DNA of 64,000 nucleotides from a virus (lineage: Duplodnaviria; Caudoviricetes), in the IMG/VR virus record IMGVR_UViG_3300010167_000013, one strand, 5' to 3'. A program made the translations under genes and the position numbers. The notes beneath the pieces were generated by a model. The model did not search any database. It was not told where the DNA came from and worked only from the letters and a program-made list of their open reading frames with translations. Shown here piece by piece: positions 41,423-63,293 of this stretch; the stretch's first letter is position 1, and every line of letters starts with the position of its first letter.

Positions 41423-42895
41423 ATGCCAAACAATAGATTGAGTGATAATCTACTCAGAGACTTATTTGTCTTTGATGATGAAAATAATCCGAAGAGTAGT
41501 CAGATAAGTAGAATATATCCACCAACAATACTGGATCAGGTATTCGACCATCTACATCCAACTCAAAAAAATCTGAGAGAAATACTTGCTGATCTTCGGT
41601 ATGAGATAATAACAGGTGGACTAGGCAATATCGAATTTCCAGTAACTACAGTGAATGGCAAGAGTGGGGATGTTACAGTAACGTCAAACGATGTTGGTCT
41701 TGGTAGAGTAGACAACACCTCTGATATAGATAAACCATTGTCAGTTCCACAGAGAAGCGCTGTGATGGATATATTGTCAGTCTACAACTTCAATATCAAC
41801 TTGGATCCATTGTATGAACACTTGAAGGATACCACTAACCCGCACAGTGTTTCTGTAGACGATTTGAATCTAAATGACAAATTAGTCAAATTTGCAGATG
41901 CTAGGGTTGGACTTCACAATCTTTCTACCAGTAGTAACACACATCCGGATATCAGGAGATTGCTATCCACATTGTGGGATAGGGTAGATGAGATTGATTT
42001 TGGCAGTTCTTCTGGTGGAAGTAGTGGAGGTAGTGGATCTGTAGCGAGTGATTTAGATGGTCATATCAAGGACAAGATGGCCCATTTCGATTTATTTGAG
42101 GGAAGAGAAAATACCAACAACAAGGCTATGATCTTTACTGCCACAATCGACAACAACCACACGATGTATCCAACTACTAGAGCAGTATCGGATTTTATTA
42201 CAGATAGACTTGTTGCGTTCAAGGATACATTACCAAAGATCAATGAATGGATATCAAATATTCAGGTTATCGATAATCAATCAGAACTTCCTGTTGCGAG
42301 CAGTGACAATTACAGACATGCATATATCATAACCAGAGGTCCAGACCCATTCGAGATCGAGAGTGCAATCGCAGTGTGTAGAAGAGATCCATCCGACATT
42401 TACTTCTGGGATATCAAAGGTACAGAAAATGTATCAATATTTGATCCGAAGTATTTCAAGAAAACGGTGAATGGATTATCGTTGGACATTCCAGCCATCC
42501 TAGATACTGACCCTGATGACGGAGAAGAAACAGTTTCCTTCTACGATGTGTTTCTGCGGTCAGTTCAAATACTTCCAGGAACAATGGACGGTCATATCAG
42601 ATATTCGGTCAACAATGATCCTAGTACAATGTCGGATGATGTAAAGATCCCAGGTCTCAATAGTCTTGCATACAGAGAGTGGATTACAGAGAATGAAATA
42701 AAAGAACTTGCTGTGCATGAAAAACATATTCTGAATAAAGCAGTTACTACTCGTACGATTGACGATAGAGCTGTTATAGCTCCAAAGATTTCATGTGCTA
42801 AGGGGAAGATAATAGGAAACCTTGTGAATAGTACAAGTACAGCTCATGAGATAACACTTGAAGAACTAGCGGACGCACTACGTTCACTAATATAA
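41423..42895 (+). CDS. tail-fibre-like structural protein
   Basis: VTTVNGKSGDV, VGLGRVDNTSDIDKPLS and NPHSV fibre motifs, shared with 56256-59261. Confidence 0.7.
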   Translation: MPNNRLSDNLLRDLFVFDDENNPKSSQISRIYPPTILDQVFDHLHPTQKNLREILADLRYEIITGGLGNIEFPVTTVNGKSGDVTVTSNDVGLGRVDNTSDIDKPLSVPQRSAVMDILSVYNFNINLDPLYEHLKDTTNPHSVSVDDLNLNDKLVKFADARVGLHNLSTSSNTHPDIRRLLSTLWDRVDEIDFGSSSGGSSGGSGSVASDLDGHIKDKMAHFDLFEGRENTNNKAMIFTATIDNNHTMYPTTRAVSDFITDRLVAFKDTLPKINEWISNIQVIDNQSELPVASSDNYRHAYIITRGPDPFEIESAIAVCRRDPSDIYFWDIKGTENVSIFDPKYFKKTVNGLSLDIPAILDTDPDDGEETVSFYDVFLRSVQILPGTMDGHIRYSVNNDPSTMSDDVKIPGLNSLAYREWITENEIKELAVHEKHILNKAVTTRTIDDRAVIAPKISCAKGKIIGNLVNSTSTAHEITLEELADALRSLI

Positions 42896-42919
42896 GTTTT
42901 TGAGGAGAGGCCGTGACAA

Positions 42920-45900
42920 ATGATGATGTACAAGTTGGAGAAAGACATATCCCTCTACAAAAATCAATTCGAAGATCTCGTTCTAAATATCTTCCAACGA
43001 CATCTCATGGAAAGACTGTCTATGGATCTTGATGGGTTGTTATTCAGAATAAAATACATGGTGAAGAACGATAAAGATCTAACGAAGCTTCCAGAAATGA
43101 AAAATCAATTCATTTCAAAGGCGCTAGAACTGAGAAGCATCTTCGGAGAAATCATGTACAATTTTCTGGTTGAACTAGTGGGATTCGGAGATAACTTCTC
43201 GAAAGACGATATCGAAGATCTCATGGCTCAAGATGTGAAAATGGATAATGTTCATGTGAGATTCAAAATGCTACTGTTGTCAGAGAATAAGAATTACCTG
43301 GATTATGTTGATGCCAGTATCGAAGATGGAAAAGTGTTCAATATGTTTCCAGATAAGTTCTTCAGGTACTATGTTGACTCATACAATGATGGGATAGCAA
43401 AAGCATATCCAGAATTATTTGAATCTAGACAACAAGACAGCATTGGTACAGGACATGATTCTGAAGTGTTCGTTCATTCTATGACCCTACAAACAACTGA
43501 GGATTGTAATCTCAACTGCTTTCCAGCTGGGACTAAGATCCTTATGGAAGATTTTTCTCACAAGAATATAGAAGATATAGAATTGGGAGACACAGTATTG
43601 GGGTTTGAAGAATTTAATGAATTCCAGCACCAAAGAAGTTTAATATCTACCATAGTTACCCAGTTATTTCACCATGATGAAAGCTGCTACAAGATTAGTC
43701 ATCCATCTTTTAAAGAGGATTTATATGTTACCCCGGAACATCCAATGCTTACAGCCCGCGGAGATTGGATACATGTCCGAGATCTTCGACCATCTGATGG
43801 GTTGCTAATGACAACATTTGACCCTGATGATTATTATCATACTAATGTTGATCATATCAACTATGTGAAAGGATACTTTATAGCTGGATGGCTCGGAGAT
43901 GGTTGTGTTATGAAACGTACCCAAAAAGATGGATATCGGCGATATTTCATGCGTTTTGTGGTCAAAGATATAGACATGACTGAACGAATGAAACGCTTCT
44001 CTGAAACTCTTGGGTTTAATTTCACAACGAATACTTTCAAGATGTCGCACAAAGATGGCTGTTATCGAGATACTTTATATTCAGGCAAGAGAGATGAGTA
44101 CGAAAGATGGGTCAAGCTATGTGAAGAGACATTTTCGGACAAACAAGCACTGAAGGATCCTGATTTTCTAATGGGATTCATGGCTGGATTTTATGATGCT
44201 GAAGGTGGTATCTGGGGTGCATGTATTAGGATTCACAACTCAGATAATAAACTCCTCCGCATTGTGGAGGCTGGTCTTAATTTTCTGAAAATAAAATGGG
44301 ACTATGATAAACCTCACCAGCCAGCTAATAAAATTGTATACACTCTTCGAATATTAGGCGGGTCACCAGATGTCCTAAAGTTTCTGAAATCCACCAGACC
44401 TGCGATTAAGAGGAAAGGTTCAGTCAATTTAGTTGGTAAGAGTTTATTCCAACGTATTGATGGATACACCATCGAGTATGCAAAATATGCAAAAACAGTG
44501 TATAATTTTGAGACGACGGAGCATACTTATATTGCTAACAGACTCCTGGTACACAACTGTAGCTACTGTTATATGTTCAACAAGAGTGATATGAGAATGA
44601 CCTTCGATATAGCCAAGAAATTCATTGATGAGTTATTGGCAGATAGATATGGTTACATCAATCGGTACAACTCTCCAGCGCTGATATTGGAGTTCATAGG
44701 TGGAGAGCCTCTGCTAGAAATTACATTGACAAGAAAAATCTACGAATACTTTCTGGACAGAACGTATGAATTGGAGCATCCATGGTTTAATCTTCACAGA
44801 CTCTCAATATGCTCCAATGGGCTACAATACTTTGATGAAGAAGTTCAATCGTTCTTCAGGGATTATGCCGGTAGTATATCATTCAATATATCCATAGACG
44901 GAAACAAGGAGTTGCATGACTCCTGTAGAATCCAGCCAAGTGGAGAAGGGAGTTATGATATCGACATGATTGCACTTAATCACTTCAACAGACACCATAC
45001 TCCAGAAAGAAATTCTAAAATGACTTTGGCTCCAGACAACATGAGATACTTATTTGATTCAGTAAAAAGCTTCATCGAAAATGGAATGATGACCATCAAC
45101 CTGAATTGTATTTTCGAGGAGGGATGGAACCAAGAAACAGCTCTTCTGGAATACAATGAATTGAAAAAGGTTGCCGATTACATTCTGGAAAATGATCTGG
45201 AGAATTTGTACATTGCTATCTTCAACGAGAGACAAGAAGATACATCAGAAAAGTCATATGACGGGAATTTCTGTTTCAAGGATGGTACTCAGGTGTTAGC
45301 TATCGATGGCCATCGTAACATAGAAGACCTGAATATCAATACTCTCTTGTACACTGCATCTGGTAGCATTCATAAAATTGTCAACATCAGTCAAAGGAAG
45401 TCTAGGAGTAATATGAAGATACATACTTCTGGAACATTTCCTATTGAATGCACTCGTGATCACAAGATATTTGCAAGAAAGATGATCCAAGAAAAAGGAG
45501 AAACATACTACGAAAAACCAGAATTTTATGAAGCTTCAGAACTTGTCGAAGGAGACTCAATCGCTCTTCCAATTCTAGATCTGTCACAGAATAAAAAGAA
45601 TTGGATAAACAACAACATCGCATATGCTCTTGGGGTATACTTACTATGTGGAACGATTAGTATGAATCGCATTGTGGTACCAGTCGATCCAGATAACAAG
45701 GTAGATGTTCGTGAGCATTTTCAGAGAGCCGGACTAAACATAACGACCGACAGACCTGACAGAGTAGAAATATATCGCCAAAAGTCAGAGCTGAACGATA
45801 ACTTCTTCAAACTATGTCTGAGGGCTGGAATTAGACCGAATGTCAAATCAGTTCCACAGATATTATTTGAATCCAAGAAGGATATAATTCAGGCCATGAT

Positions 45901-47866
45901 CAATGGATACTTCCAGGCAGGCGGATTTCAAGTAGCAGAAGGGAAAAACCATGAAGGGTTATTGAAAATAAGCATCATATCGAGACATCTGGCAAATGAT
46001 TTACTAATCCTCCTGAGATCTGTCAATCAATATCCAATATGCACCATGAGTCAAAAACCAATCACAATTGATGTAGATGGATCTAAGATGTCGTTCGATG
46101 AATCATATGGGATATCATATAACCCAATCAACTCATACCTGAAAGATCATTATGAGATAGATCAAGATCACTATGTCGCATGGGTTGGTATCAGATCAAT
46201 TGCATTTGTAAATGACGAATGGGAAGTTTTCTGTCCTACCGTAATGCCGATAAATGAAGGTGAAAAAGAAGAGCACACTATCATTGCAAACAATGCTGCA
46301 GTGAACCAATGTTTTCGTGGTGACATGCAAGTGTTGACGATCAATGGGAGCAAGAATATCAGAGACCTTCATGTTGGAGAACTATTGTATACTGCATCAG
46401 GTAGTATTCACAAAGTAACAAGAATGACAAAACGGTTCAATGAAAGTAATAGGAAGGTAACAGCAGCTGGAATTTTTCCAATTCATTGCACTGATGATCA
46501 CAAGGTATTTGCTAAAAAATTTCTATATATGGGATGGAAAGGTGTTCTTCACTATTCAGACCCAGGGTTCTACCCTATTTCGGAATTGAAGAAAGGTGAT
46601 AGAATGGCACTACCTATACTTCAATTACCAGAAAAACAAGTAGAAAAATGGTTGACTGAAGAACTAGCATATGCATTTGGAGTATATCTTGCAGATGGTC
46701 ATGGTTACACAGATAGTATAGTTATTACTCCAGGATATGATGACGACAAGAGTTACATGAATATGCTCAGAGGGTCTGGACTAACAATAAGTGTGAGTGA
46801 AATGCGTACCAGCATGAGGTATGATATTCACAAAAATTCATCTGAAGCAAATAGAAAGTTTATCGAACTATGTCTGATGTCTGGTGTTACATCCTGGACC
46901 AAACATATCCCAGAAACTATTTTCAACTCACCAAAGAATATTGTCCAGAAAGTTCTTGATGGATACCTGGAAACTGATGGATGGCAAGTTCCAGAAGATA
47001 AACATATTGCAGGAATGATCAAAGTCAATACGGTCTCTCAACATCTTGCTAGTGATATTCTAGTTCTTCTACGAGCTGTCGGAGAGTACCCTACTTGTTA
47101 CCTAAATAACAGGGCTGGTACTATGATCATTGAGGGTAGAACTGTAAATGTGCGAGATCGATATGAAATATATTATAACCCGACTAGGCCCAATGGGAAT
47201 AATATGTTTAAGAATGATGATCAATATAGTCTGATGTGGACAGGGATCAGAGATATTCAAAATGATGAAAACTATGATGTATATTGTCCTACAGTATCCC
47301 CTCTCACAAACGACCTAAAAGAAGAGCATTCCATAATTGTTAATGGTCTCGGTGCCCAGAACTGCGGCGGGACTGGAGCAATGTTATCATTAAGACCAAA
47401 TGGACAGTTCTATCCATGTATCAGATACATGCCATCTTCTGTTGGAGATAATGTAGATGATCTTTGCATTGGGACTGTGCAAGATGGAATGGTAGGAAGG
47501 GAAGAAAACTCTGAGGTTCTAAAATTATTAGACAGTGTAACACGTAGATCTCAATCTAATGATATATGTTATAAGTGTCCTATTGGAAATGACTGTGCTC
47601 ATTGCTCAGCGATGTCGCAGACAGTTTATGGAACTCCTAACAAAAAAGGATCTTTCATTTGTATTCAGATGATAGCAGAAGCACTAGCAAATGTTTATTA
47701 TTGGAATAGATTGTTGATTCATAAACCTCATTACGATCTTCCAGTTCGCAAGAATAATGTTCCTGACGAATGGTCGTTACTAGTGGTAGATGAAGTAGAA
47801 TTAGAAAACTTAAAGCTTCTTGAATGTATGGCGATGATCAAAAAAATAGAATACAGTGGGACTTAA
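42920..47866 (+). CDS. radical SAM/SPASM maturase (CXXX-repeat-target type) with three inteins; 604 aa after splicing
   Basis: spliced CNLNCSYC motif; FIGGEPLLE; SIDG..HD..R; spliced NFCGGTG...YPCIRY; C-terminal CYKC..CAHC..C cluster. Confidence 0.9.
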   Translation: MMMYKLEKDISLYKNQFEDLVLNIFQRHLMERLSMDLDGLLFRIKYMVKNDKDLTKLPEMKNQFISKALELRSIFGEIMYNFLVELVGFGDNFSKDDIEDLMAQDVKMDNVHVRFKMLLLSENKNYLDYVDASIEDGKVFNMFPDKFFRYYVDSYNDGIAKAYPELFESRQQDSIGTGHDSEVFVHSMTLQTTEDCNLNCFPAGTKILMEDFSHKNIEDIELGDTVLGFEEFNEFQHQRSLISTIVTQLFHHDESCYKISHPSFKEDLYVTPEHPMLTARGDWIHVRDLRPSDGLLMTTFDPDDYYHTNVDHINYVKGYFIAGWLGDGCVMKRTQKDGYRRYFMRFVVKDIDMTERMKRFSETLGFNFTTNTFKMSHKDGCYRDTLYSGKRDEYERWVKLCEETFSDKQALKDPDFLMGFMAGFYDAEGGIWGACIRIHNSDNKLLRIVEAGLNFLKIKWDYDKPHQPANKIVYTLRILGGSPDVLKFLKSTRPAIKRKGSVNLVGKSLFQRIDGYTIEYAKYAKTVYNFETTEHTYIANRLLVHNCSYCYMFNKSDMRMTFDIAKKFIDELLADRYGYINRYNSPALILEFIGGEPLLEITLTRKIYEYFLDRTYELEHPWFNLHRLSICSNGLQYFDEEVQSFFRDYAGSISFNISIDGNKELHDSCRIQPSGEGSYDIDMIALNHFNRHHTPERNSKMTLAPDNMRYLFDSVKSFIENGMMTINLNCIFEEGWNQETALLEYNELKKVADYILENDLENLYIAIFNERQEDTSEKSYDGNFCFKDGTQVLAIDGHRNIEDLNINTLLYTASGSIHKIVNISQRKSRSNMKIHTSGTFPIECTRDHKIFARKMIQEKGETYYEKPEFYEASELVEGDSIALPILDLSQNKKNWINNNIAYALGVYLLCGTISMNRIVVPVDPDNKVDVREHFQRAGLNITTDRPDRVEIYRQKSELNDNFFKLCLRAGIRPNVKSVPQILFESKKDIIQAMINGYFQAGGFQVAEGKNHEGLLKISIISRHLANDLLILLRSVNQYPICTMSQKPITIDVDGSKMSFDESYGISYNPINSYLKDHYEIDQDHYVAWVGIRSIAFVNDEWEVFCPTVMPINEGEKEEHTIIANNAAVNQCFRGDMQVLTINGSKNIRDLHVGELLYTASGSIHKVTRMTKRFNESNRKVTAAGIFPIHCTDDHKVFAKKFLYMGWKGVLHYSDPGFYPISELKKGDRMALPILQLPEKQVEKWLTEELAYAFGVYLADGHGYTDSIVITPGYDDDKSYMNMLRGSGLTISVSEMRTSMRYDIHKNSSEANRKFIELCLMSGVTSWTKHIPETIFNSPKNIVQKVLDGYLETDGWQVPEDKHIAGMIKVNTVSQHLASDILVLLRAVGEYPTCYLNNRAGTMIIEGRTVNVRDRYEIYYNPTRPNGNNMFKNDDQYSLMWTGIRDIQNDENYDVYCPTVSPLTNDLKEEHSIIVNGLGAQNCGGTGAMLSLRPNGQFYPCIRYMPSSVGDNVDDLCIGTVQDGMVGREENSEVLKLLDSVTRRSQSNDICYKCPIGNDCAHCSAMSQTVYGTPNKKGSFICIQMIAEALANVYYWNRLLIHKPHYDLPVRKNNVPDEWSLLVVDEVELENLKLLECMAMIKKIEYSGT
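43517..44557 (+). mobile_element. intein 1 with LAGLIDADG endonuclease (347 aa)
   Basis: CFPAGT...TPEH...AGWLGDG...GFYDAEG...VYNFET...LVHN|C. Confidence 0.95.
45272..46309 (+). mobile_element. intein 2, Gln-terminal, degenerate endonuclease (346 aa)
   Basis: CFKDGT...TRDH...GVYLLCG...GYFQAGG...VFCPTV...AVNQ|C. Confidence 0.85.
46310..47362 (+). mobile_element. intein 3 with LAGLIDADG endonuclease (351 aa), fused directly to intein 2
   Basis: CFRGDM...TDDH...GVYLADG...GYLETDG...VYCPTV...GAQN|C. Confidence 0.9.
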
Positions 47867-47879
47867 TAGTCCCACTGTA
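47852..47879. terminator. terminator hairpin between convergent genes
   Basis: TACAGTGGGACT-taat-AGTCCCACTGTA. Confidence 0.7.
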
Positions 47880-47883
47880 GATT

Positions 47884-48399
47884 TTATATATTTTCTATCA
47901 ACTCATTTGGGTCATCATCCATAAGCTGTTTCAGACTCCATGGTGAGTCTATAGGAATCTTCCTGATATAGTCCACATTGATTCTATACTCTTTAGGATT
48001 CTTCTCTAAGATTCTTTTGAATTCGTTCCTAGCACGTATGTAAGCTAAGGGAGCATCAGTATGTTTTACAATGTTAAGATCTCGATCTTCTGCGTCCCAT
48101 TTCGTTATAATAGTAATCTGTTTACGGGCTTCTTCAATCTCATCAAGTAAGTTACTGTGACCATAGATATTATCACCATATTTCAATTTGAATAAATGCA
48201 CAATGATAACAGTCACATATGATGTAGCTCTATTTCCGTCACTTCTAACGGAAGCTTCAGAATATAATTCTTCATCATATGCTTCATTGAATGGAATACC
48301 TTGTTGAACTGCCTCAAGTGCTCTCTTGATACGACCCAACTCATCAGTAGTTCTATTGAGTCTATCCAATGCTTCTAGTAGCATTTCCTTTTCATTCAT
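47884..48399 (-). CDS. DUF29-like protein
   Basis: IIVHLFKLKY and C-terminal PWSLKQLMDDD resemble DUF29. Confidence 0.5.
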   Translation of the reverse strand: MNEKEMLLEALDRLNRTTDELGRIKRALEAVQQGIPFNEAYDEELYSEASVRSDGNRATSYVTVIIVHLFKLKYGDNIYGHSNLLDEIEEARKQITIITKWDAEDRDLNIVKHTDAPLAYIRARNEFKRILEKNPKEYRINVDYIRKIPIDSPWSLKQLMDDDPNELIENI

Positions 48400-48423
48400 T
48401 TAACAACCCTCCTACTATATTTA

Positions 48424-48858
48424 TCATTTGATCGATGGCAATTGTTTTACCCAGGTGGATAACAAACTCAGCATAGTGAAATATTCAGTATCGCCCATAT
48501 GTCTAATGTATCTACCTTTAGAGCCATCCTTCACATAAAACATAGGAGGAATGTTCCTGGTAAGTTCTTCATACGGTTCCCTAAAGAGAATATACATTTC
48601 GCCCACAGTAGTCCATGAATGAGATGAACAGCATCCAATAGTTTTATACCCCTTGCGGTTGAGAGTAAATACGATGTCAATCATATTCTCGTCTATCCTA
48701 ATGATACTTCCACTACAAGACATGGTAGGACAGAATTCCTCATGTTCTTCTATAAAGTCCCCAATTTCTTTGTTGTATGGAACTAATAACGTTTTTGCTC
48801 TAGGAAATTGTGTATGAACATTGTAGATCGTATTACATACTAAACATACCGGTATCAT
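48424..48858 (-). CDS. hypothetical phage protein (Zn finger plus LNxKGYxTxxCCxxH motif)
   Basis: CLVC...CPTMSC; IDENM...LNRKGYKTIGCCSSH. Confidence 0.6.
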   Translation of the reverse strand: MIPVCLVCNTIYNVHTQFPRAKTLLVPYNKEIGDFIEEHEEFCPTMSCSGSIIRIDENMIDIVFTLNRKGYKTIGCCSSHSWTTVGEMYILFREPYEELTRNIPPMFYVKDGSKGRYIRHMGDTEYFTMLSLLSTWVKQLPSIK

Positions 48859-48905: not shown

Positions 48906-51900
48906 ATGATACGAAACCGAGATTATAAAGGAACATGTCATAATGGAGGTGATTGCGTGAATAGGGATTTATACTCGAATACAGAGTTTACCAAATTGAA
49001 GGAAGACTTGAATAAAGAAATAAAAAGACGGGCCACATTCAAGTGGTGGGACCCACTAGCTACTCCAAAGGTAGGACAGGATAGATCATCCCCATTATCG
49101 TTACCTGATATCGGAAAAAGAATGTTGGTAACAGATGAAACTTACACCATCAACAATTCTTCTGAGGGATCTATTGAATGTACTAGAAACATACACTATC
49201 CTGCTCATGGGGAGAATCCTTCTGGAGAGATACCAAATACCCCCTTGAATAACAAAGAAGGACAACTCAAGACTTCCGCTGCCAGATTAGATGCCGATGA
49301 GATAAAAAACTATCTGGTTGGATTGTCGAAGATAATGGACATAAATCTTTTCTATGGAAGAGATGAAGTTCCTGGCACTGCATTTCGTGATCCTATTGGA
49401 ATAGAGAATGCATTGAAAGCTGCTCAGAATAGCAAGCTGAATGCTCCACTTCATCAATCTGATATTGAACCAGCAAGAATAGATCCTAGCAAGGAAGATC
49501 TAACTGTTGTAACATATCATATTGATGGTGGGATATATGTAATGCCATCTGGAGAATACGATGGGGAGGAACTATTGAAGAAGATGGGTCCTGATGAAAC
49601 CAACTTCTTTGATGATCACGGAGCTAAGGTATATGATACCGGGAAGAAAACTCCTGATGGACAACCTATTTTGGTAAGTGATTCTAACTACAAGCCAATG
49701 AATCCGTTTGTATCTCCTCTTGTTAATAGAAACTGGAATGATCAACAGAATAGTCGTGAAGATCTTCCAACCAAAAGAGAAGAGGGTGGAGTTCCATCTA
49801 CTAGGTTTGGCCCTAATCCTAGAAATCCTCAGCAGGGAAATCAGTACAGACCTAGACCTGTATTCGGCGGAGTTCTTGGAGCATGTAATTCATCGTGCAC
49901 AGGATTATGTTTTAAGACATGTGATAATGAATGCAGTGAGAATTGCACTACAACGTGCTGGTCTAGATGTGGCAACGCTTGCACGTCAAGCTGCGGGAAT
50001 GTCTGTACCGGGTGCAACTCGATGTGCTATACCTCCTGTAAAACTAAATGCGAAAATAGCACGGGATATTCATGCCTGAATGTTGGAGCCAAGACAGTAA
50101 ACATAGTTCCTGTTGGTAGTGCTCACGGATCATCTGGTGCACCGGGATCAGCTACCTGGCCAAAAAACACAATATCATATACTACCTACAAATGTAATGG
50201 TTGCGCATATACATGTCAATTCTACCCGAATAAACGTACCACATGTTGGGATGCAGGTTGTCAGGAGTTATGTTTCACGTCATGCAGAACAGCATGTTCC
50301 ACAACATGCTTTGGAGGATGTATAGATAACGCTGCTCAGGATACTGGGAAGTACGGAACTGGAAAAGGCCGTGGATGTTCTAGTGGATGTACTGTCAACT
50401 GTGTAGGAGCTTGTCAAGGAGTATGCATAGGCGAATGCGTTCACACATGCTTCCATGCATGCAAGGCGTTATGCTACGATAACTGTTCGTGGAAATGTCA
50501 TACCAGCTGTGGATCCGGTTGTGCCAATGGATGTAAAAACGGATGTACTGGATGTCACTCAACATGCGCTGGTAGTTGTATTGGAGAAAACAATGCATCC
50601 ATATGTATTGGATGTGGAAAATCTGGTGGATGTACATCTACATGCCAACATGATTGCAATAAGAATTGTATCGGCTGGGGATGTAGATCAATATGTGGAA
50701 CAGAATCGGCTGGATCTTGTGAATCTAATTGTCGTCTGAGTTGTATGTCATCTTCATGCACTTCAATGTGTGGAAATGCTTGTGCGTCTCAATGTACAAC
50801 ATGTGTGAATAACTGTGGAGCTCAATGCGGGTGTTGTTCATCGATGTGTAGCACTGGATGTGAAGCTGCATGTAATATTACATGCACTGAAGAATGTCAG
50901 AATGCATGTACTACATATTGTTACATGTCATGCACTGAATCCTGTGGAAGTTGTTTCAAAGCAGGTACATTAATAGAAACTGAACTTGGACTTGTCCCCA
51001 TCGAGGAGGTTAAAGTAGGGGATATGGTTTTAACACAAAGCGGAAAATATCATAGAGTTTATAAAAATTTTGTAAGAGAAGCTAATGATATTATCTCTAT
51101 TAGAGCAGTAGGAACTCCAATAATTCATACCACAGAAGAACATCCGTTCTGGGTTAAGAAATATATTGGCTTAGGAAAAAAAGAAGGGAAACTTCAACAG
51201 TTGTATTCAGATCCAGAATGGGTGGAAGCTAGAGATCTTAAATCTCGTGATAAATTATCATTGTATACACCTCCAATTGGAAATATTGAAGTTGATCCTG
51301 GTATAGCTTATATGGTCGGAAGGTGGCTTGGAGACGGATGGAGAAGCGATGAAAAAAGCCATAATGGACAATATTATCCAAGGTTTAGTATTTGCTGTGG
51401 AAAACATGAAATAGATGATTTCGAACTTAAATTATATCAATCTAATATTGAATATACTAAATCTACTAAAGAGACATCAGATAATTATAGGATACCATCT
51501 ATGATTACCAGGGATAGGTATTGGTGTAATAATGATGAACTTATTTCAATCCTAAAAGAATGCGGAAAATATTCTTATGGTAAAAAAATAAGTAAAGAAA
51601 TTTACAATTGGAATATAAATTCATTGATGCATTTACTTCAAGGGTATTCTGATGCAGATGGACATTTCGATGAAGATCATTCATCAATTGTAATCTCAAC
51701 TGTAAGTAAAGAGCTTGCTCTTGGAGTATCAACTATTATGAGAATGATTGGAAGAAATCCATCATGCCATGTGAAAGAATATCCTACCGGCAAAATGTAT
51801 ATTGAAGGCCGTGAAGTTAACGTAAGAACTGTATACACTTTAAAAATGTTTACGGGAGAATATACCAGAAATTATTCTGAATATGATTATGATAATAATA

Positions 51901-52784: not shown

Positions 52785-52788
52785 AACC

Positions 52789-53070
52789 ATGGGGAAAATA
52801 ACAAGTGTCTACTATCAGGAAATTGATCCAAAAATAGTAGACATTCAAACAGCTGGAGAATTTTATTACAATCACAATCTTCTAGATGTTCATGAGATGT
52901 TCCATGATGATTATGAGAGATCTGAAATAGAACAACTAAATCTACGCAACATACTTCTAGGAGAAGCCATCAAATGCGAGGATATACAAGGAAATGTCAA
53001 AGTTGACAGCAGTATACTTGCAATATCTTCACTGAAAAATAAAGTTGTATTAGTTGCTGAATTACGATAA
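52789..53070 (+). CDS. small protein co-transcribed with the Cys-rich gene
   Basis: starts 4 nt after the stop of 48906-52784; GGGAG RBS. Confidence 0.65.
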   Translation: MGKITSVYYQEIDPKIVDIQTAGEFYYNHNLLDVHEMFHDDYERSEIEQLNLRNILLGEAIKCEDIQGNVKVDSSILAISSLKNKVVLVAELR

Positions 53071-53811: not shown

Positions 53812-54768
53812 TTAGATTAACTTTATGAGTTCCTCATTTAGGAGTTTAATATTTTTTGTCTCGGTTGCTATGTCTGCTGCATTAATAGAGACCAGGTTAG
53901 TTCCCCTGAGTAAAGTGAATACCATGAATATCAAATATTCAACATTATCGATTGCTAGTATTGATATCGGAAAGTAGTAATTAATCCAACTGGACAAGAA
54001 AGTAGCCAGTGTCAACGAGTTCATTCTAGCTGAACCTGTCTTTACCAATTCCAACAGTCCTGTTACACTACTTGGATCTTTTTCATTGTACAATCTTTTT
54101 ACATCGTCTAATTTCATTTCATCTAATGATTTGACGTTGTCAGACGATAACTTGTCAATGTTATCTGGACTATCCTTGGATCCAAATATATTGAGTAGGA
54201 AGAATTTATTCACCCAGAATTGAATGGTGTCGAATGAAGTCTTGTCAGCAGCAAACTGGTACTCTTTATTCAGCACTCGAATAACAAACTTGGTATAGAC
54301 AGTCATCAATATCTTCTGAAGATATTGACTAGAAAGCAACGCCTCATAGTTTGTTTTCAGTTTGTTGGCTACAAGAGCTCCTACCAGTAGATCATGGAGA
54401 ACTGTGTATTGGATATTCAATACACCATCCTTGGTTAATCTCACATGATTATCGACAAATACATATGTTACCGTTTTACCCTGAGTTTGAAATGTAATGA
54501 ATGGAAGAGCAACAGATACACTGTTGGATTTAATCTGATTGTAGACCAGCGCTACCTGTCCTTCTTCGAAAGCTTTTACAGCAGCCCTGGATAGAGAATT
54601 TGGATACTGTCTGATCTGAATATATGCTCCTTCGATATCATCTACCGATAGGTGTTTTGCTGTTTTGATCAGGTTGATAGCTTTCTCTATTTGGTTACTT
54701 CCAGACATCTCATTCAAACCATTGAATACTTCACTCGTGGCAAGTGTTGATTCTGTTACAATTGCCAT
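53812..54768 (-). CDS. jumbo-phage-type hypothetical protein, possibly virion
   Basis: 318 aa, helical; no motif recognised. Confidence 0.6.
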   Translation of the reverse strand: MAIVTESTLATSEVFNGLNEMSGSNQIEKAINLIKTAKHLSVDDIEGAYIQIRQYPNSLSRAAVKAFEEGQVALVYNQIKSNSVSVALPFITFQTQGKTVTYVFVDNHVRLTKDGVLNIQYTVLHDLLVGALVANKLKTNYEALLSSQYLQKILMTVYTKFVIRVLNKEYQFAADKTSFDTIQFWVNKFFLLNIFGSKDSPDNIDKLSSDNVKSLDEMKLDDVKRLYNEKDPSSVTGLLELVKTGSARMNSLTLATFLSSWINYYFPISILAIDNVEYLIFMVFTLLRGTNLVSINAADIATETKNIKLLNEELIKLI

Positions 54769-56255: not shown

Positions 56256-59200
56256 TTAGCTGAGAGAGTCTTTCCACATTACCACTTTATTTGGATCTGG
56301 TGCAATTCCTTTATCGAACGATACCATAGTAGATACATCGATATCTCCAGGAGTACCAGGAGTCCATCCTCCACCTTCTCCAGGAGTCATATACTCTGCT
56401 ATCATTTGCATGATAGTTTCTCTGACCCATTTGGTATCTGGAATCTGCCTATTGTCTGCCATTGGACTAGGTCTTACACTGACAGTTGGAGTTCCATGCA
56501 AGTTAAGATTATGAACCAACTTCTCAGAAGTTATCGTGTCATTGGCAATGAAGTCTCCAGTGACCATCAGATACTCTGGGGGAGCATTTGGTTTAGTGGC
56601 ACCTAGTACTCGATATGAATAGTTACTCCTGAACAGTTTATCCTTGGTGACTGCAAGATCTTCTATCATATCAGTTGTAACCTGCAGCCAATCTGGATCA
56701 ACATCCAACACTGATGTTACAGCCAATACTCTGTTTGGCACCGTAGATGTGAATAACTCTGTGCCGCCAACAGCTCTTGGGGCAATATTATTTGACCTAA
56801 TAGTCCAGTCCATTATGTGGTTATGATGAACCGTCTTATCCTGCAAATGTTCGGCCCATACAGATCCTTCTTTGAGCTGAAGTCTATCTATAGTTCTGGT
56901 CTGTATCATTTCTCCAGTTACTTGCAACCATGCTGGATCTGTTCCAAACAATGGATTTACAGCAAGCACCCTATATGGGAATGAAGAAGTAAACATGTTA
57001 GTCCCATTTACCGCTCTACTGGCTATCATACTACTAGTGACCTGAGTCCAAGTAGGATCAGTATTGGATCCAACAACAGCCATTACCCTATTTGCTGTAG
57101 ATGAACTTTGTAATTTATTTGCTGGGATGGAACGATTTTCAATATGATTTCCAGCAATGATATTATCTAGAAGCATTTGTTTATTGATCCTGGTGTAGAT
57201 CGGATTACCATCATCTTCTACGGCAGCAAGAACTCTATTTCCATCCTTTGACTTCCACATCTTAGCAGAAGTAACTGCATCATTTACTATGTTATTTGTT
57301 TGAACGATGTTATTCGTGAGGTGTCTAGATAGAATAGCTCCATCTGATATCTTGTCTGCAGTAACACTCAAATCCGTCAGATGGGGTGTGTTTACAGAAT
57401 TAAGACCCATCATCGAAGTGTTTACTGTACCCCAAGCAGGATCACCATTTGCAGTGTAGACGCCAAGTATTCTGTTTGGAGTAGGTGATGTGAATAGAGC
57501 TTTCCCATCTACAGACCTTGGAGCAATATTCTCTGCGCTTATCTCAATAGCATCAAGCTGATCTTTCACCCACTTAGTATCGGGTATTTGGTTATTGCTA
57601 GAGACGGATGCAGGCCTGATACCTATCTTGGGGGTTCCTGGCAGAAGTATATCATCTTCAATTTTCACACTTGTTACACTCTTCGTTGCCAGCTTATCTG
57701 CGCTAATAGCTAACGGGGCTATCTTAATCCCAGTAACAGACAGATCGTTCATCTTATCGGTTGTCACAGATAGATCTTCTAGTTTCCCAGTTGTCACATT
57801 GAGATCCATGATATTATTAGTTCTCACAGCACCATGTGAAATCATGTCACTATTGACTTGCATCCAGATGGGATCTGATCCTACTGCATTTACTCCAAGC
57901 ACTCTATTCGCAACAGAAGATGAGAATAACTTTTTCCCAGTAACTGCTCTGTCGGCTAGCTTAGTGGTAGTTACAGATAGCCCTTCTAGCTTCTCAGTAG
58001 TAATACTATCGTCTGCCAATTTAATTGTAGTGATAGATAGATCTTTGATCTTGGTTGTGGTAACAGAATTAGTAGCAAGTATTCGTTCAATAACTGCACC
58101 GCTAGAAATAAGATCTTCCGTGATACTTCCAGAATTAATTGTGGCACTGATGATCTGCTCTCCAGTGATTTGATCCCCGTCTACCACAAGAGTGATATTT
58201 GTTTCCACACTACCCAAGTATCTGATGAATAAATCCTTCAGATCAACTCTCTGGTCACTACCGCTGAGTTTAGTCAATACAAACTCTTTGGTCATACTAT
58301 CATAGTGAGCGTCATATATTAATCCATTGATTGGAATGAATAACGTGATAATACTTCCATCCTTCAAGTCAAGTGTTAGATTACCAGACGTTTGATTGTA
58401 GGATGCACCAACAACAAAATTAGTGTCACCTAGATCAGTACTAATGTTGTTGATAATCGAATTGACTATATCTAACGCTGCTTGAGTTTTATCTGATATT
58501 GGCTTGTCTAAATCGGATGTGTTGTCAACATTACCTAATCCAACCTGAACCTTCGACACTTGATGAGGGTTATCATAATTATCTGTGTGAAATTCAAATG
58601 CATCACTACTGACACCATTCAGCTGTGATAGAGTTACTGCATGTGGATTATCAAAATTACTGAGATGATTGCCAAGTTTTGTTGATGTGATAATCAGGTC
58701 ACCTTGGACATCACTTTCTAAATTATCTATTCTATCCGTGATGATATCGATAGCCTCTGTAGTAGCTTTCTGTGTCATGAAACCATCATCATTCAGTCCA
58801 AGATCCTGATAAGTCTCTGGACGTCCGACAATATCTACCCATCTTATCTTCATTCCAGAATCCGGATCGATGCTTCCATCCTCGTCTATTATCCCAAGCT
58901 TGACTAGTAATTCTCCAATAGCTTTTTCAGTTGGAATTTTGGAATGACTTTGAGATGAAGGATCGGATGGAATACTTTTACTGATCTGGATAGCCCCAAC
59001 AGCACCTGGGCTTCCGGCAAATGTCATCAGATAGTTAGCAGGTTTTGCTGCAAATATCGGTTGTTTTATTTCTAACTCTTTGTGGATATGATCAAGGATT
59101 TCTTCCAGAGTTATAGAGTCTTCCTTGTTCATTTCAGCTCTAACCGCTTTGAACACAGTAATAGGAAATGTTTCCTTGAAGTTTAGATTTGGAGGAGGTG

Positions 59201-59261
59201 GAGCTTTTGGATCGTCCCAAGTCCTACTCTGAATAATTTCTCTGCCTATCAGTGCACCCAT
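56256..59261 (-). CDS. long tail-fibre-like repeat protein
   Basis: NPHxV and VGLGNVDNTSDLDKPIS; 10-aa SVTTxKIxDx repeats; about seven NRVLxV...DPxWxQV knots. Confidence 0.75.
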   Translation of the reverse strand: MGALIGREIIQSRTWDDPKAPPPPNLNFKETFPITVFKAVRAEMNKEDSITLEEILDHIHKELEIKQPIFAAKPANYLMTFAGSPGAVGAIQISKSIPSDPSSQSHSKIPTEKAIGELLVKLGIIDEDGSIDPDSGMKIRWVDIVGRPETYQDLGLNDDGFMTQKATTEAIDIITDRIDNLESDVQGDLIITSTKLGNHLSNFDNPHAVTLSQLNGVSSDAFEFHTDNYDNPHQVSKVQVGLGNVDNTSDLDKPISDKTQAALDIVNSIINNISTDLGDTNFVVGASYNQTSGNLTLDLKDGSIITLFIPINGLIYDAHYDSMTKEFVLTKLSGSDQRVDLKDLFIRYLGSVETNITLVVDGDQITGEQIISATINSGSITEDLISSGAVIERILATNSVTTTKIKDLSITTIKLADDSITTEKLEGLSVTTTKLADRAVTGKKLFSSSVANRVLGVNAVGSDPIWMQVNSDMISHGAVRTNNIMDLNVTTGKLEDLSVTTDKMNDLSVTGIKIAPLAISADKLATKSVTSVKIEDDILLPGTPKIGIRPASVSSNNQIPDTKWVKDQLDAIEISAENIAPRSVDGKALFTSPTPNRILGVYTANGDPAWGTVNTSMMGLNSVNTPHLTDLSVTADKISDGAILSRHLTNNIVQTNNIVNDAVTSAKMWKSKDGNRVLAAVEDDGNPIYTRINKQMLLDNIIAGNHIENRSIPANKLQSSSTANRVMAVVGSNTDPTWTQVTSSMIASRAVNGTNMFTSSFPYRVLAVNPLFGTDPAWLQVTGEMIQTRTIDRLQLKEGSVWAEHLQDKTVHHNHIMDWTIRSNNIAPRAVGGTELFTSTVPNRVLAVTSVLDVDPDWLQVTTDMIEDLAVTKDKLFRSNYSYRVLGATKPNAPPEYLMVTGDFIANDTITSEKLVHNLNLHGTPTVSVRPSPMADNRQIPDTKWVRETIMQMIAEYMTPGEGGGWTPGTPGDIDVSTMVSFDKGIAPDPNKVVMWKDSLS

Positions 59262-59307
59262 TTATATTTCACCCCTTGGTAATCAATATTGATTTAAGAA
59301 GAGGTTC

Positions 59308-59335
59308 GGTAGTAGGGGAAAGCTCCCCTACTACC
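59308..59335 (-). terminator. terminator hairpin after the rSAM operon
   Basis: GGTAGTAGGGGA-aagc-TCCCCTACTACC. Confidence 0.7.
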
Positions 59336-59342
59336 AGTATGA

Positions 59343-59498
59343 TTACTCAGATTCCCCTTCACGTATTTCAACTTTGGTGTCTTTGAGTTTGGCTGCTACA
59401 TCCGACTTGAGATCTTCTGGCACATCCTCGATCGTCTTGACCTTTCGTTTGATCAACTTGGCAAATAGATTGCTGAGCGCGTTATCTGTACTCTTCAT
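59343..59498 (-). CDS. CD1375-like small protein (51 aa, not in ORF track)
   Basis: LFAKLIKRKVKTIEDVPEDLKSDV, a pattern of tail-fibre-associated small proteins. Confidence 0.7.
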   Translation of the reverse strand: MKSTDNALSNLFAKLIKRKVKTIEDVPEDLKSDVAAKLKDTKVEIREGESE

Positions 59499-59546
59499 TC
59501 TTATTCATCTCCATTCTTATTGTGCATTATACCTTAGTGTTTCAAA

Positions 59547-60113
59547 TCAAGGAAGAATTGGATTGACGAATAATTTATTATAAAAACCTATGTGTTTTGA
59601 GGATACAACAAGTTTTTGGTTATCACATTTATAAATATAAGGTCTGATGTTGAATACCCAACATCTCTTCATGAATGCTAGTAGTAAATCATCAGTGGTA
59701 TCCTCAGATATGTTGATGTGGATTGTACTCATTGCTCTGTGGAGCATTCTCACATATGCCAATGAGTTCAATTCGATATATGGTATCCAATGATTATGAT
59801 GCTCCATGTATCTATCATTTGTATCTGGATTGTACAAGATATTTACATTTGTGTCAGCGACCAGTTCTCGAATCTTACTTCCAGGATAATGTCTCAAGAT
59901 ATGCATATCGATGTAGAGATCGACACATACATCTGGACAATGTATACTACTCATCGATATCAGTTCAATTGCATCAAGTGCAGCACGTTGATTCAACTCG
60001 ATTAGTGATATCTCTAGTGTGTATTTCCCCTTAGTGTGTTTTGTTCTATATCTATACCCAAATAGGTTCTGAAGTTGATTCTTGTAGGAATCCTGATGTA
60101 AAGTTAGCATCAT
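59547..60113 (-). CDS. hypothetical protein in the rSAM operon
   Basis: 188 aa; ATGA-coupled. Confidence 0.65.
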   Translation of the reverse strand: MMLTLHQDSYKNQLQNLFGYRYRTKHTKGKYTLEISLIELNQRAALDAIELISMSSIHCPDVCVDLYIDMHILRHYPGSKIRELVADTNVNILYNPDTNDRYMEHHNHWIPYIELNSLAYVRMLHRAMSTIHINISEDTTDDLLLAFMKRCWVFNIRPYIYKCDNQKLVVSSKHIGFYNKLFVNPILP

Positions 60114-60457
60114 CTATCCTCCCCATACATAAATATACTAATCACTAAGTTGTCGTCCAGTATGTGTGGTTCTGGAGGAAGGTTATTGTGTGTCTTAGAT
60201 CTACCGAACTTGTTGTGGTGGTACAACCTCACACAATTTCTGATGATATCATTTCCATACTTTGTGTCATTGATATATGCTAATTCATTGATGGTGAGTA
60301 AGGTTTCTCCGTCATAACTATTGAGGTCCTTCATCGTGACAATGTAATCAATAACAGTGGCTAGGACTTCTTCAGTGGTTCCGAATTCTCTGAATTGATT
60401 TACCAGATCTAGTGAGAGTTTCTTATCCAGTGTAGATTGATTTACTGACATTCGCAA
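60110..60457 (-). CDS. hypothetical protein in the rSAM operon
   Basis: 115 aa; overlaps the rSAM stop. Confidence 0.65.
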   Translation of the reverse strand: MRMSVNQSTLDKKLSLDLVNQFREFGTTEEVLATVIDYIVTMKDLNSYDGETLLTINELAYINDTKYGNDIIRNCVRLYHHNKFGRSKTHNNLPPEPHILDDNLVISIFMYGEDR

Positions 60458-61773
60458 CCAACCTCCCCTAGATCCAAATATGCATTTATCAAATAATCAC
60501 GGTAGGTATCTCCCTTATTTTTGATTAGTGCATCAAGTATTCCTAGTTCATCATAGTACTCATACAAGAATTTGAACTTGGATTGATATAATTTGCATAC
60601 TGATTCCACTGGCATGAATACTTCCTTGTTGGTCTCATAGTTGGAACCTAGGCAACCTTTTGTACAGAACGATTTGATTGGACATGAATAGCACTTCAGC
60701 TGAAATGCTGCTGGAAGAGATTTGATCGATAGATACTGTGTCACAAATTCCCCTTCGATATCAATAATCTTTTCTTGGTTTTCATCCAAGATAAACCTAC
60801 CAGCTATGAATTCTGGATACATCAATCGGTGACATGGAACTACAGTTAGGTCTGCCATTCTGACAGCTATTGATTTCTGAATGCTGCATGATATTGCATC
60901 GTCGTATCTTTTATTGGCATTTCTAAGAATCAATGCAGTAATGTCTTCTGGTCCATTCACTAAGTTATCAACATATCTCTTAGCATCGTAGTCAAAATAT
61001 TCCATCTTTTTGTCTATCATATGTTTCAGAAAGTTGATATAGTGAGCGATGGATTCCTCTGTCCATCCATCGTTCCTTACTTCCAACATATTTAGTTTGA
61101 ATTTCTCCCCATGATCACCGAGCATTTCGATGAACCAATCCCAGTTGTCAGGCCATTCCTCAATATTGTTATGATGCACCATCGCATGAAAGCTATAATT
61201 ATACTTCCTTGCAAATGCCATGAGTTTCTCGTAGTACTCATCGCCTCTGGACTGATTCTTACTCTTGTATGGTCTATTACATTCCATGAACTTCCCGTCA
61301 TCAGAGATAGATAGATATACTCGTTTACTGGTATCAATGAACTTCTCAACGATATCTTCGACTCTTCTTGTCTTCTCATCATCCAGGATAAAAGAATAGT
61401 TTGTTGGAATATCAACATACTGGAACAGAGTTGGGCACTCTATCATTTTCTGGTGAACTAGATCTAGTACCTGGAATCCTATTTCTTGAGAAAATATTTC
61501 TCCAGAGAAAAGGGACAACCTACCTTGGTACTCATTCTCTATCAAGAAGTCTAAAAATATTTCAGTATTCCTCAGAATGCTTTCACCGTTCTCAAATACA
61601 GATGATGGATACAGTTGATGCCCATATCTATGCATGTAACAGTAGGTGCATGCCTGATCACATTCTGGTGATAGTATGAGTTCAATGGATGGGATTGAAT
61701 TATTAGCCCCACTGAGACCTCTCATCAGATAACTCTTCAAGAGCAAATCATTTTCCTTCTGATATGATATCAT
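60442..61773 (-). CDS. radical SAM/SPASM protein
   Basis: CDQACTYC; FSGE; SPASM-like C...PCHR...CYSC..C...C...C. Confidence 0.9.
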   Translation of the reverse strand: MISYQKENDLLLKSYLMRGLSGANNSIPSIELILSPECDQACTYCYMHRYGHQLYPSSVFENGESILRNTEIFLDFLIENEYQGRLSLFSGEIFSQEIGFQVLDLVHQKMIECPTLFQYVDIPTNYSFILDDEKTRRVEDIVEKFIDTSKRVYLSISDDGKFMECNRPYKSKNQSRGDEYYEKLMAFARKYNYSFHAMVHHNNIEEWPDNWDWFIEMLGDHGEKFKLNMLEVRNDGWTEESIAHYINFLKHMIDKKMEYFDYDAKRYVDNLVNGPEDITALILRNANKRYDDAISCSIQKSIAVRMADLTVVPCHRLMYPEFIAGRFILDENQEKIIDIEGEFVTQYLSIKSLPAAFQLKCYSCPIKSFCTKGCLGSNYETNKEVFMPVESVCKLYQSKFKFLYEYYDELGILDALIKNKGDTYRDYLINAYLDLGEVGCECQ

Positions 61774-63293
61774 GCGAACATCTCCTTCTTACTATCTCTG
61801 AGGTGTCTTTCGTACAGTAATTCAAATGTTCCATTCAACAATAACTTAGCCATTGACGTATCGGGAACAAGGAAATGATTTGTTATCTGCAAATTATGAA
61901 TTATGCATTCATTGATCCTCTTGAGGAATATAACAGCTCTATTCCTCATCTTCTTGCTATTCTTGAACATTGGACTTATTTGACCAGCCTGTGCTAATTC
62001 ATAGACTAGTGCCGAGATAGCTGAGAATGTTATTAATGCTCCTGCTCTGGTGGCATATGCCTCCATATTTTTTACCTTGGCAACATTCTCTGGAGAGGTA
62101 TCATTGATATTTAGCGATAGTAGATTTGAATTTCTTTCAAACATATATTTTGAATTGCGTTGCTTCGGAACTACCTTTCGATCAAAGATTGTACCTTCTA
62201 TCTTGCTATTCACAAGTGAATCTTCGTAGAACTTTGTGCTCAACATCCCAGTAGTCTTTGAACATACCCCATATGTTTTCCCATCGGGATGGAGTCCAAT
62301 GGTACTATACCCTCCGGAGCAACAACTATATCCAACATTATCAATGGTGGTATTCGGGTTTTCCATTTGATCGTATATTGTAGGGAATTCTTGGTCTAAC
62401 CATAGCATGGTATCATACAATGGTAAGAACAGCTGATCCCTATTTCTATCACTAATATCAAGTACCATCTTGACGAACTCAGCTAACTTCTTACCATCTT
62501 CTTGAGTGTATTCCCCAGGAGCAACAAAGTTTGGGATAGACATCATTTGAATATCTAAATTATTGGATGTTGGTATGTTATTCAATCCAACATGTAGATC
62601 CTCAAAGAACTTGTAGTATTTTATCACGGATTCTTCATCTACTAAAACATTTGTTATTGTGTCCATACATAGTGTAGATTTCGCGATTATTGATACACCA
62701 ACATTTCCTGGAACACTTGAGTCCAATAGATATACAAGAGGTTTGAGATTATTGACCACGGTCTCAGTTACCCCTGATTTCTGATTTGATATGAACAGTC
62801 TATGACGATCTGTTACCTCGGATGGTCCGTCAAGTGACACCTGAATATGGACATGAAACTCTCTGTTCATATCCTTGTATCTGTAGTTCTTCATTATGTC
62901 AACAAATCTACCTAATTCAGTAATATTGGTGGTGAGGTTAGTGAGAAGGGTAAAGTGATACAGATTCGGAAACTCATCCAAGTAGGTATCTAATTTGTCA
63001 TTGAGTAGGGACAGATTAAGGAGTAATTCTCCTCCAGTAATATATAGCTGGGTGAGGTGATGTCTGTTCTCTCCATAAATCTTCTTCAATGATTCAAGGA
63101 GGATATTCTCCTTCAGAGCTTTCCTGACTACTTTGTCGTAGTCAAAGATTGCTTTGTTTTTGTGAATGTAGCAATAATCGCACTTCAAGTTACATTTAGT
63201 GCTCAACGCAATGTGAACTACATTTGGTTCAATCATTAGAATGCCTCTTTTCTTTTCTACCATCCGATTACTAGTAATTAATGACATACTCAC
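61770..63293 (-). CDS. radical SAM protein with reduced auxiliary-cluster region
   Basis: CNLKCDYC; TGGE; SLDGP...D..R; CCSGG...GVC; start may be the ATG at 63236. Confidence 0.88.
   Translation of the reverse strand: MSMSLITSNRMVEKKRGILMIEPNVVHIALSTKCNLKCDYCYIHKNKAIFDYDKVVRKALKENILLESLKKIYGENRHHLTQLYITGGELLLNLSLLNDKLDTYLDEFPNLYHFTLLTNLTTNITELGRFVDIMKNYRYKDMNREFHVHIQVSLDGPSEVTDRHRLFISNQKSGVTETVVNNLKPLVYLLDSSVPGNVGVSIIAKSTLCMDTITNVLVDEESVIKYYKFFEDLHVGLNNIPTSNNLDIQMMSIPNFVAPGEYTQEDGKKLAEFVKMVLDISDRNRDQLFLPLYDTMLWLDQEFPTIYDQMENPNTTIDNVGYSCCSGGYSTIGLHPDGKTYGVCSKTTGMLSTKFYEDSLVNSKIEGTIFDRKVVPKQRNSKYMFERNSNLLSLNINDTSPENVAKVKNMEAYATRAGALITFSAISALVYELAQAGQISPMFKNSKKMRNRAVIFLKRINECIIHNLQITNHFLVPDTSMAKLLLNGTFELLYERHLRDSKKEMFA

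Follow-up and report, generated by a model that had tools for sequence, protein, structure and literature searches.

The window analysed here is a stretch of 64,000 nucleotides from the IMG/VR virus record IMGVR_UViG_3300010167_000013 (Duplodnaviria; Caudoviricetes), in which a gene for a radical S-adenosylmethionine (SAM)/SPASM protein, rSAM1, lies about 1 kb from the gene of a giant Cys-repeat protein, its putative substrate and hereafter called the target. Two further radical SAM genes, rSAM2 and rSAM3, stand in a separate cassette. A preliminary description of this DNA had reported three radical SAM genes (42920, 60442 and 61770), and all three are present, each with a CX3CX2C motif; it had also placed one of them 24 nt behind a fibre gene, which is where rSAM1 starts, 24 nt past the end of a 490-residue tail-fibre-like gene. 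The features that make up rSAM1 and the target are the following.

42920-47866, + strand: rSAM1 precursor, 1648 residues, radical SAM/SPASM, with three inteins (TIGR04115, 295.5 bits, E 7e-88)
43517-44557, + strand: intein 1, 347 residues, LAGLIDADG type, inside the CX3CX2C motif (CNLN-intein-CSYC); Pfam Intein_splicing, Hom_end_hint and LAGLIDADG_3, junction restored against the intein-free orthologue
45272-46309, + strand: intein 2, 346 residues, ending in VNQ; Pfam Hint_2 from residue 785, borders by alignment
46310-47362, + strand: intein 3, 351 residues, ending in AQN before CGGTG, which holds the first SPASM Cys; excision of both inteins gives GNF-CGGTG, as in the orthologue
48957-52784 (reading frame opening at ATG 48906), + strand: giant CxxxC-repeat protein with one intein; 139 homologues
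49884-50951, + strand: Cys tract, part before the intein, delimited by Cys spacing
50952-52013, + strand: intein 4, 354 residues, LAGLIDADG type, in the Cys tract (residues 683-1036); TIGR01443 intein C-terminus, Pfam Hint_2 and LAGLIDADG_3
52014-52193, + strand: Cys tract, part after the intein, delimited by Cys spacing; site of weak TIGR04118 and TIGR04114 matches

The enzyme, the Cys-repeat protein and their inteins

Spliced rSAM1 comprises 604 residues, is 69% identical without gaps to the intein-free orthologue of locus L011, and has its CX3CX2C motif (CNLN-CSYC) restored by splicing. The family to which it was compared, TIGR04115 ('radical SAM peptide maturase, CXXX-repeat target family'; 359 positions, cut-off 350 bits), has been catalogued since about 2011. 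The window protein reaches only 295.5 bits, in two stretches, because the inteins interrupt the match; the intein-free L011 orthologue reaches 363.1 bits, its match covering positions 3-359 of the 359, and the L007 orthologue lies just below the cut-off at 329 bits. Both NCBI and JGI attach the family's name to rSAM1 orthologues, and by its sequence rSAM1 is assigned to the TIGR04115 family or to its border. The preliminary description had connected the radical SAM genes of this locus with bacterial CXXX-repeat systems: for rSAM1 the connection holds, through an orthologue above the cut-off and through the synteny described below, while for rSAM2 and rSAM3 it is unsupported.

The SPASM region contains eight Cys (C437, C455, C471, C505, C508, C514, C517 and C536 in P0153 numbering) that are invariant or nearly so. 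Across it, spliced rSAM1 aligns to the L011 orthologue without gaps, and both Cys motifs are intact. The AlphaFold2 model of an rSAM1 orthologue (pLDDT, its predicted local distance difference test score, 81; predicted template modelling score 0.83) superposes on CteB with Z 27.3 and a root-mean-square deviation of 3.2 over 333 residues, ahead of anSME and ChlB. CteB was likewise the best solved relative of rSAM1 in a profile search against the PDB (E 1.7e-20) and was matched by Foldseek at E 2e-15, and PapB is the second-best NCBIfam family for rSAM1 or its orthologue. An additional N-terminal domain of about 170-185 residues is confidently predicted and does not align to the N-terminal region of CteB; searched as a profile against the open reading frames (ORFs) that neighbour small CXXX systems, it gave no match, and hence no split form of the enzyme was found there.

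The genes of rSAM1 and the target appear to be frequent intein sites, since many orthologues of both carry Hint domains. In the window, inteins 2 and 3 are paralogous LAGLIDADG inteins, 39.8% identical, arranged head to tail with zero extein residues between them. Intein 4, which is 28% identical to intein 3, interrupts the target at a junction reading CGS-C...HN-CSDM.

The target ORF (48906-52784) encodes 1292 residues and, spliced from its ATG, a protein of 938 residues with 93 Cys, in which 68 of the 92 successive Cys gaps are exactly four. A GTG at 48957, preceded by GGAGG 7 nt upstream, would give a precursor of 1275 residues and a spliced protein of 921 residues with 91 Cys. This shorter form is probably the product, because of that GGAGG, because orthologues begin MNRDLYSN..., and because a 1275-residue ENA-derived sequence is a member of the same protein cluster; GTG 48957 is thus likely the true start. 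Either form agrees with the spliced protein of about 920-940 residues in CxxxC register that had been described at the outset.

The target is organised as a leader-like N-terminal helix, an N-domain of about 300 residues, a Cys tract of 416 residues, a Pro-rich linker and a variable, beta-rich C-domain of about 140 residues. The tract holds 89 Cys (21% of its residues) and is otherwise rich in S, G, T and N. Its CxxxC register is unmistakable: in 20,000 shuffles of the 416 residues, the number of gaps of four averaged 9.2 (standard deviation 2.8, maximum 22), against the 68 observed. The register is also retained in evolution, as orthologues carry 86-92 Cys, about 80 of which are invariant among 56 orthologues that are 48-65% identical to the reference sequence. 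Conservation of the non-Cys residues of the tract equals that of the N-domain (0.68 in both), and the C-domain is the least conserved part (0.47). Precomputed annotation places PF27846 (tSAM_targ_Cxxx_rpt) at the 'faint' level on all 120 of the 139 homologues that were listed, and the TIGR04114 matches of the orthologues fall, all but one, within the Cys-rich ORF.

The probable enzyme-substrate pairing and the proposed product

The two genes travel together. In 10 of the 13 loci fetched through either protein the same order is kept, namely the 490-residue fibre-like gene, rSAM1, the Cys-rich gene and a 93-residue gene, followed on the other strand by 105-residue, 318-residue structural-like and exonuclease genes, and by a fibre gene. 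Among 15 viral loci fetched through the target, 12 have rSAM1 1-3 kb upstream, and in two of the remaining three the record also carries the enzyme, at a distance of 45-60 kb. In locus L001 the stop of the radical SAM gene overlaps the start of the target gene, and the target was present in all five related records searched. The preliminary description had reckoned with radical SAM genes in phages that lack the Cys-rich gene: rSAM1 and the target co-occur in each of the related jumbo-phage records checked, and it is the rSAM2/rSAM3 pair that recurs elsewhere, in stretches that, as far as read, hold no CXXX gene.

More distant rSAM1 relatives (37-40% identity) adjoin smaller CXXX proteins, of 197 residues in a human-gut phage contig (L040), 267 residues in another viral contig and 277 residues in a contig of a rumen metagenome-assembled genome. 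In L040 (MT835573.1, a human faecal phage contig), positions 13074-15886 hold the 197-residue CXXX protein with 22 Cys, a 209-residue ORF and a radical SAM protein of 446 residues, between tape-measure and tail-fibre genes; this radical SAM protein is 37% identical to rSAM1 and lacks the first ~150 residues of the rSAM1 N-domain. A scan of genome contigs with the radical SAM alignment returned two loci, one of them with the 277-residue CXXX ORF. When a profile of the first 60 residues of the target was compared with 911 ORFs of other loci, the top match was the L037 orthologue, followed at E 1e-4 and 0.08 by the N-termini of two small CXXX proteins from phages, which suggests a common recognition helix. 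A scan of viral contigs for a DNA pattern of seven in-register Cys codons gave at least 80 loci, mostly chance matches or simple repeats, with no rSAM1 homologue among the matches listed; a complex prediction for the rSAM1 orthologue with target residues 1-300 scored 0.00 and counts neither way.

An enzyme-substrate relation between rSAM1 and the target is therefore likely, in view of their co-occurrence, the synteny, the conservation of the Cys, the smaller CXXX pairs and the shared N-terminal helix match. The alternative that the tract forms a scaffold of metal-binding, Fe-S or disulfide type, folding round cofactors or becoming oxidised once released, with rSAM1 a mere neighbour or devoted to some other substrate, draws on its 21% Cys content and its want of a fixed acceptor residue, on the failure of AlphaFold2 to model it, as expected of cofactor-dependent folds, and on a survey that predicts metal cofactors for many Cys-rich proteins (PMC13692751). 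We regard it as improbable, given that the TIGR04115-type pairing is seen in jumbo phages as well as in smaller phages unrelated to them, including cases of overlapping genes, that separated genes are still both retained on the same record, and that in an anoxic gut disulfides would probably not be stable.

The genes that surround the pair are listed below.

41423-42895, + strand: tail-fibre-like protein, 490 residues; PHROG tail fibre and minor tail matches, best phrog_35419 at E 1.3e-9; syntenic in relatives
52789-53070, + strand: 93-residue gene, candidate partner, directly after the Cys-rich gene; 34-50% identity
53486-53803, - strand: 105-residue conserved neighbour, adjoining the 318-residue structural gene in relatives
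53812-54768, - strand: 318-residue virion-structural-protein-like gene; phrog_21032 'virion structural protein', E 2.5e-16
56256-59261, - strand: 1001-residue tail-fibre protein; phrog_892 tail fibre at E 8e-32 and 18 further PHROG families, mostly tail or fibre

Fibre genes and a virion-structural-like gene thus flank the rSAM1/target pair, and this gene context, together with the layout of a conserved N-domain and a variable C-domain, suggests that the target may be located in the phage particle.

We propose that rSAM1, once its three inteins are removed, would act as a radical SAM/SPASM maturase with the protein of 48957-52784 as its dedicated substrate. The enzyme would recognise this substrate, possibly via its conserved N-terminal helix (SNxEFtxLKxxLNxEIxRR), and would then move along the 416-residue tract, whose 89 Cys are mostly four apart. 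There, 5'-deoxyadenosyl-radical chemistry supported by auxiliary Fe-S clusters would create Cys-to-carbon thioethers, as for CteB and PapB, and the outcome would be a covalently laddered domain, independent of disulfides in the anoxic gut. The product would probably form part of the particle, associated with the tail, its N-domain conserved and its C-domain variable. The proposal as a whole, in which rSAM1 cross-links the target and the target serves in the particle, seems to us slightly better than an even bet. Its two components are each finely balanced: thioether chemistry, argued from analogy, could as well hold as fail, and the chances that the target is a particle component, judged from its gene context and layout, appear about equal either way. 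The fullest version, an adsorption apparatus in which a 416-residue domain is held by dozens of enzyme-made Cys-to-carbon thioethers, is doubtful.

Several observations weigh against this proposal. Thioether formation is argued by analogy only, because literature searches found no published reaction for any TIGR04115 member. The tract shows no fixed acceptor comparable to the CX3D of PapB substrates, its positions +1 to +3 being a mixture of S, T, N and G. The target stays below the cut-offs of the TIGR04114, TIGR04117 and TIGR04118 profiles; on TIGR04114 (cut-off 20 bits) the window protein reaches 11.3 bits at best and its orthologues at most 17, and the composition filters of HMMER probably suppress the score of the Cys tract. 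The associated family TIGR04116, a companion of about 90 residues, was not found at E <= 1 in three complete relatives. Intein 2 ends in Gln and has a residue other than His in the penultimate position, and Cys1 of intein 3 supplies its +1 nucleophile; if intein 2 is unable to splice, the rSAM1 of the window phage is dead. As to structure, AlphaFold2 gave the target orthologue P0088 a mean pLDDT of 46.7 and the tract only 22-30, so that no tract geometry is available, and in a wide fold search with this model the highest Z was 4.5, no better than noise. Neither the N- nor the C-domain has a PHROG match, a profile of the N-domain retrieved the target's own family alone (24 clusters) from 1.84 billion representatives, and no family match, fold match or proteomic datum puts the target in the particle. 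A Foldseek search of BFVD with the P0088 model gave no match at E <= 0.001.

Two further alternatives accept rSAM1 as the enzyme acting on the target. The tract could be modified by other chemistry, such as epimerisation, C-C cross-links or Cys oxidation like that of anaerobic sulfatase maturases. The fold relatives of rSAM1 include anSME (Z 23), ChlB, SuiB and the epimerase EpeE, which accords with such chemistry, as does a family whose reaction is unpublished; but the best relatives in both sequence and structure, CteB and PapB, are thioether formers, and the invariant feature of the substrate is the Cys register itself, so we hold other chemistry to be rather unlikely. [quoted passage not shown] Such a role would suit the failure of every target domain to match a structural family or fold, and the short-peptide nature of the bacterial CXXX targets (98 positions in TIGR04117, 46 in TIGR04118). 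It is countered by the fibre and structural genes that surround the target both in the window and in relatives, by a small version within the tail module of the unrelated L040, and by a size and a conserved-N/variable-C layout like those of adsorption proteins; a non-particle role is accordingly unlikely, although it deserves more weight than a different chemistry.

The phage, the small neighbours and the second radical SAM cassette

The window is part of a large phage that encodes a PhuZ-like tubulin, a 2741-residue ORF and several tail-fibre and virion-structural-like proteins. The tubulin gene (12371-13636, - strand; phrog_4733 at E 7e-8) is a hallmark of some jumbo phages, and the 2741-residue ORF occupies 1313-9538. 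In megablast and tblastn searches, neither the locus nor the Cys-rich protein nor a 958-residue structural protein gave a GenBank phage match, which indicates by sequence a phage with no sequenced cultured relative in the GenBank phage collection. The contig from which the window comes measures 178,815 bp; IMG/VR relatives measure 270-292 kb, and three are rated complete. Near-identical DNA occurs in three termite-gut metagenome runs from two studies, one of them a possible origin of the window, and the anoxic setting assumed in the preliminary description is plausible since the source is the termite gut.

Directly upstream of the 490-residue fibre-like gene, 40149-41327 (- strand) is a 392-residue ORF read by eye as a TnpB of IS200/IS605 type. 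Between rSAM1 and the target, 47884-48858 (- strand) carries two small genes of 171 and 144 residues, the latter Cys/His-rich. This spot is variable, as the flanking genes overlap in L001 and a different gene, of 319 residues, is present in L007. In the 290-kb relative L020, a QueC-like gene (4430-5269) stands upstream of the fibre/rSAM1 block, and a HemN-like radical SAM gene (21621-22670), unrelated to rSAM2 and rSAM3, occupies the position equivalent to theirs beyond the big fibre gene.

Gene 53486, the 105-residue neighbour, had been put forward as an accessory of the system. It is encoded on the opposite strand and has no match in NCBIfam (E <= 10), Pfam or PHROG, and with TIGR04116 missing from the three complete relatives the accessory role is unsupported. 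The 93-residue gene follows the target immediately in L001, L004-L008, L011, L012 and L020; it too has no NCBIfam family at E <= 10 and no PHROG match, and it is the better candidate for a partner of the two.

The second cassette is made up as follows.

59547-63293, - strand: cassette of overlapping genes, comprising rSAM3 (61770-63293), rSAM2/SPASM (60442-61773), a 115-residue ORF (60110-60457) and a 188-residue ORF (59547-60113)

The four genes mutually overlap upstream of the 1001-residue fibre gene. This arrangement, an operon headed by two radical SAM genes and set before a fibre gene, is as first described; its last gene had been called CD1375-like, a label that finds no support, as the 188-residue ORF has no NCBIfam family at E <= 10.

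The preliminary description had envisaged all three radical SAM proteins acting, together with gene 53486, on the giant Cys protein. All of these genes lie within 21 kb among fibre genes, and rSAM2 and rSAM3 have weak matches to RiPP maturase families, for instance to PapB at 50 bits, as would suit a single system. However, rSAM1 and the target are retained by five related records, of which three are complete, and a search of these, run without a positive control, gave no homologue of rSAM2 or rSAM3; a scan of viral contigs likewise gave no homologue of either. In 5.8 billion clusters rSAM2 has 19 homologues. An rSAM3-like and rSAM2-like pair recurs on large phage contigs (L172, 6580-9395; L174, 1519-4503 and 6524-9162). 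Two rSAM2 contexts were read, a 135-kb phage contig in which it lies near NrdD and dUTPase, and the duplicated pair of L174 near a NeuB-like gene; there was no CXXX ORF in the stretches read around the recurring pairs. The three-enzyme system is unsupported because rSAM2 and rSAM3 are absent from relatives that keep the target and because they recur as a pair of their own. With gene 53486 lacking any family match as well, we consider a single system very improbable and treat rSAM2 and rSAM3, on comparative sequence evidence, as a separate module with a different substrate.

A possible substrate of that module is encoded in locus L023 (2751-3107), about 900-1250 nt past the right edge of the window and on the same strand as rSAM3 and rSAM2. 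It is a protein of 118 residues with three Cys and a C-terminal half rich in S, N and Y. After it come a small fibre-like protein and then a fibre of 1345 residues.

Implications and comparison with known systems

Should the proposal hold, radical SAM stapling would extend beyond the short antimicrobial peptides and the one archaeal protein for which it is known: jumbo phages of a widespread gut clade, and many smaller phages, would use it on large proteins encoded beside fibre genes. It would scale RiPP chemistry about tenfold, provide the first function for TIGR04115, and represent the first radical SAM modification of a virion protein. The particle would gain stability in anoxic guts without disulfides, from what may be a new, redox-proof, covalently laddered fold with no solved counterpart, and enzymologists would gain a natural substrate with about 90 modification sites.

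No paper was found on phage CXXX systems, on genes of the Caitlin type described below, or on the radical SAM genes of SPN3US-like phages, in agreement with the initial remark that no characterised phage example was known. Erwinia phage vB_EamM_Caitlin, one example from the cultured jumbo phages of enterobacteria, offers a parallel in gp174, gp172 and gp171, with a radical SAM protein 27% identical to the rSAM1 core. Its gp174 (L051, 3900-4106) is a hypothetical protein of 68 residues that ends in CGGSCSWTCSGGC, with four Cys in CxxxC register, and is encoded just upstream of the two radical SAM genes gp172 and gp171, near virion and tail-assembly genes. It differs from the window in the size of this target (68 residues, 4 Cys) and in having two adjacent radical SAM genes, and its proteins are annotated as hypothetical or 'putative radical SAM'.

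Of the solved or characterised enzymes, CteB (the SCIFF maturase, PDB 5WGG/5WHY) and PapB (a ranthipeptide maturase) share with rSAM1 the radical SAM core and a SPASM domain with two auxiliary clusters. Their identity to rSAM1 is just 20-22%, and they act on peptides that have few Cys and in which the acceptors are defined; residues 176-552 of the phage model align with residues 90-448 of CteB, leaving the phage N-domain unmatched. CrpC (TIGR04463) of Methanococcus voltae is a SPASM radical SAM enzyme that installs ranthionine thioethers in the Cys-rich protein CrpA, whose N-terminal region resembles a leader and whose C-terminal Cys motif is repeated, as a 17-residue repeat with C-X-X-Q/D (PMC13692751, 2026). 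The proposal for the phage has the same idea, namely thioethers in a Cys-rich protein, instead of a short peptide, with a leader-like N-terminus and a repeated Cys motif. The archaeal pair nevertheless differs in its radical SAM family, the phage orthologue scoring only 49 bits on TIGR04463, in its repeat, in its cellular setting and in the far fewer Cys of CrpA.

The closest counterpart is the CXXX-repeat system itself (TIGR04115, with the targets TIGR04114, equal to PF27846, TIGR04117 and TIGR04118, and the associated TIGR04116). There too a radical SAM/SPASM enzyme, of a family whose full profile the intein-free L011 orthologue matches above the cut-off, adjoins a target in which each fourth residue is a Cys. 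The kind of system is already known, since rSAM1 falls within a catalogued family or on its border and annotation pipelines name its orthologues accordingly. Catalogued targets span 46-98 positions, whereas the phage target has about 920 residues, with 89 Cys in a 416-residue tract and additional N- and C-domains; the phage locus also differs in its sub-cut-off target scores. Its departures from the catalogued family are a roughly tenfold larger, multidomain target, carriage by a phage among fibre genes, the absence of TIGR04116, the extra N-domain of the enzyme, and invasion by four inteins. We infer that the locus is a phage-borne, oversized variant of the CXXX-repeat radical SAM system, served by one enzyme rather than three.

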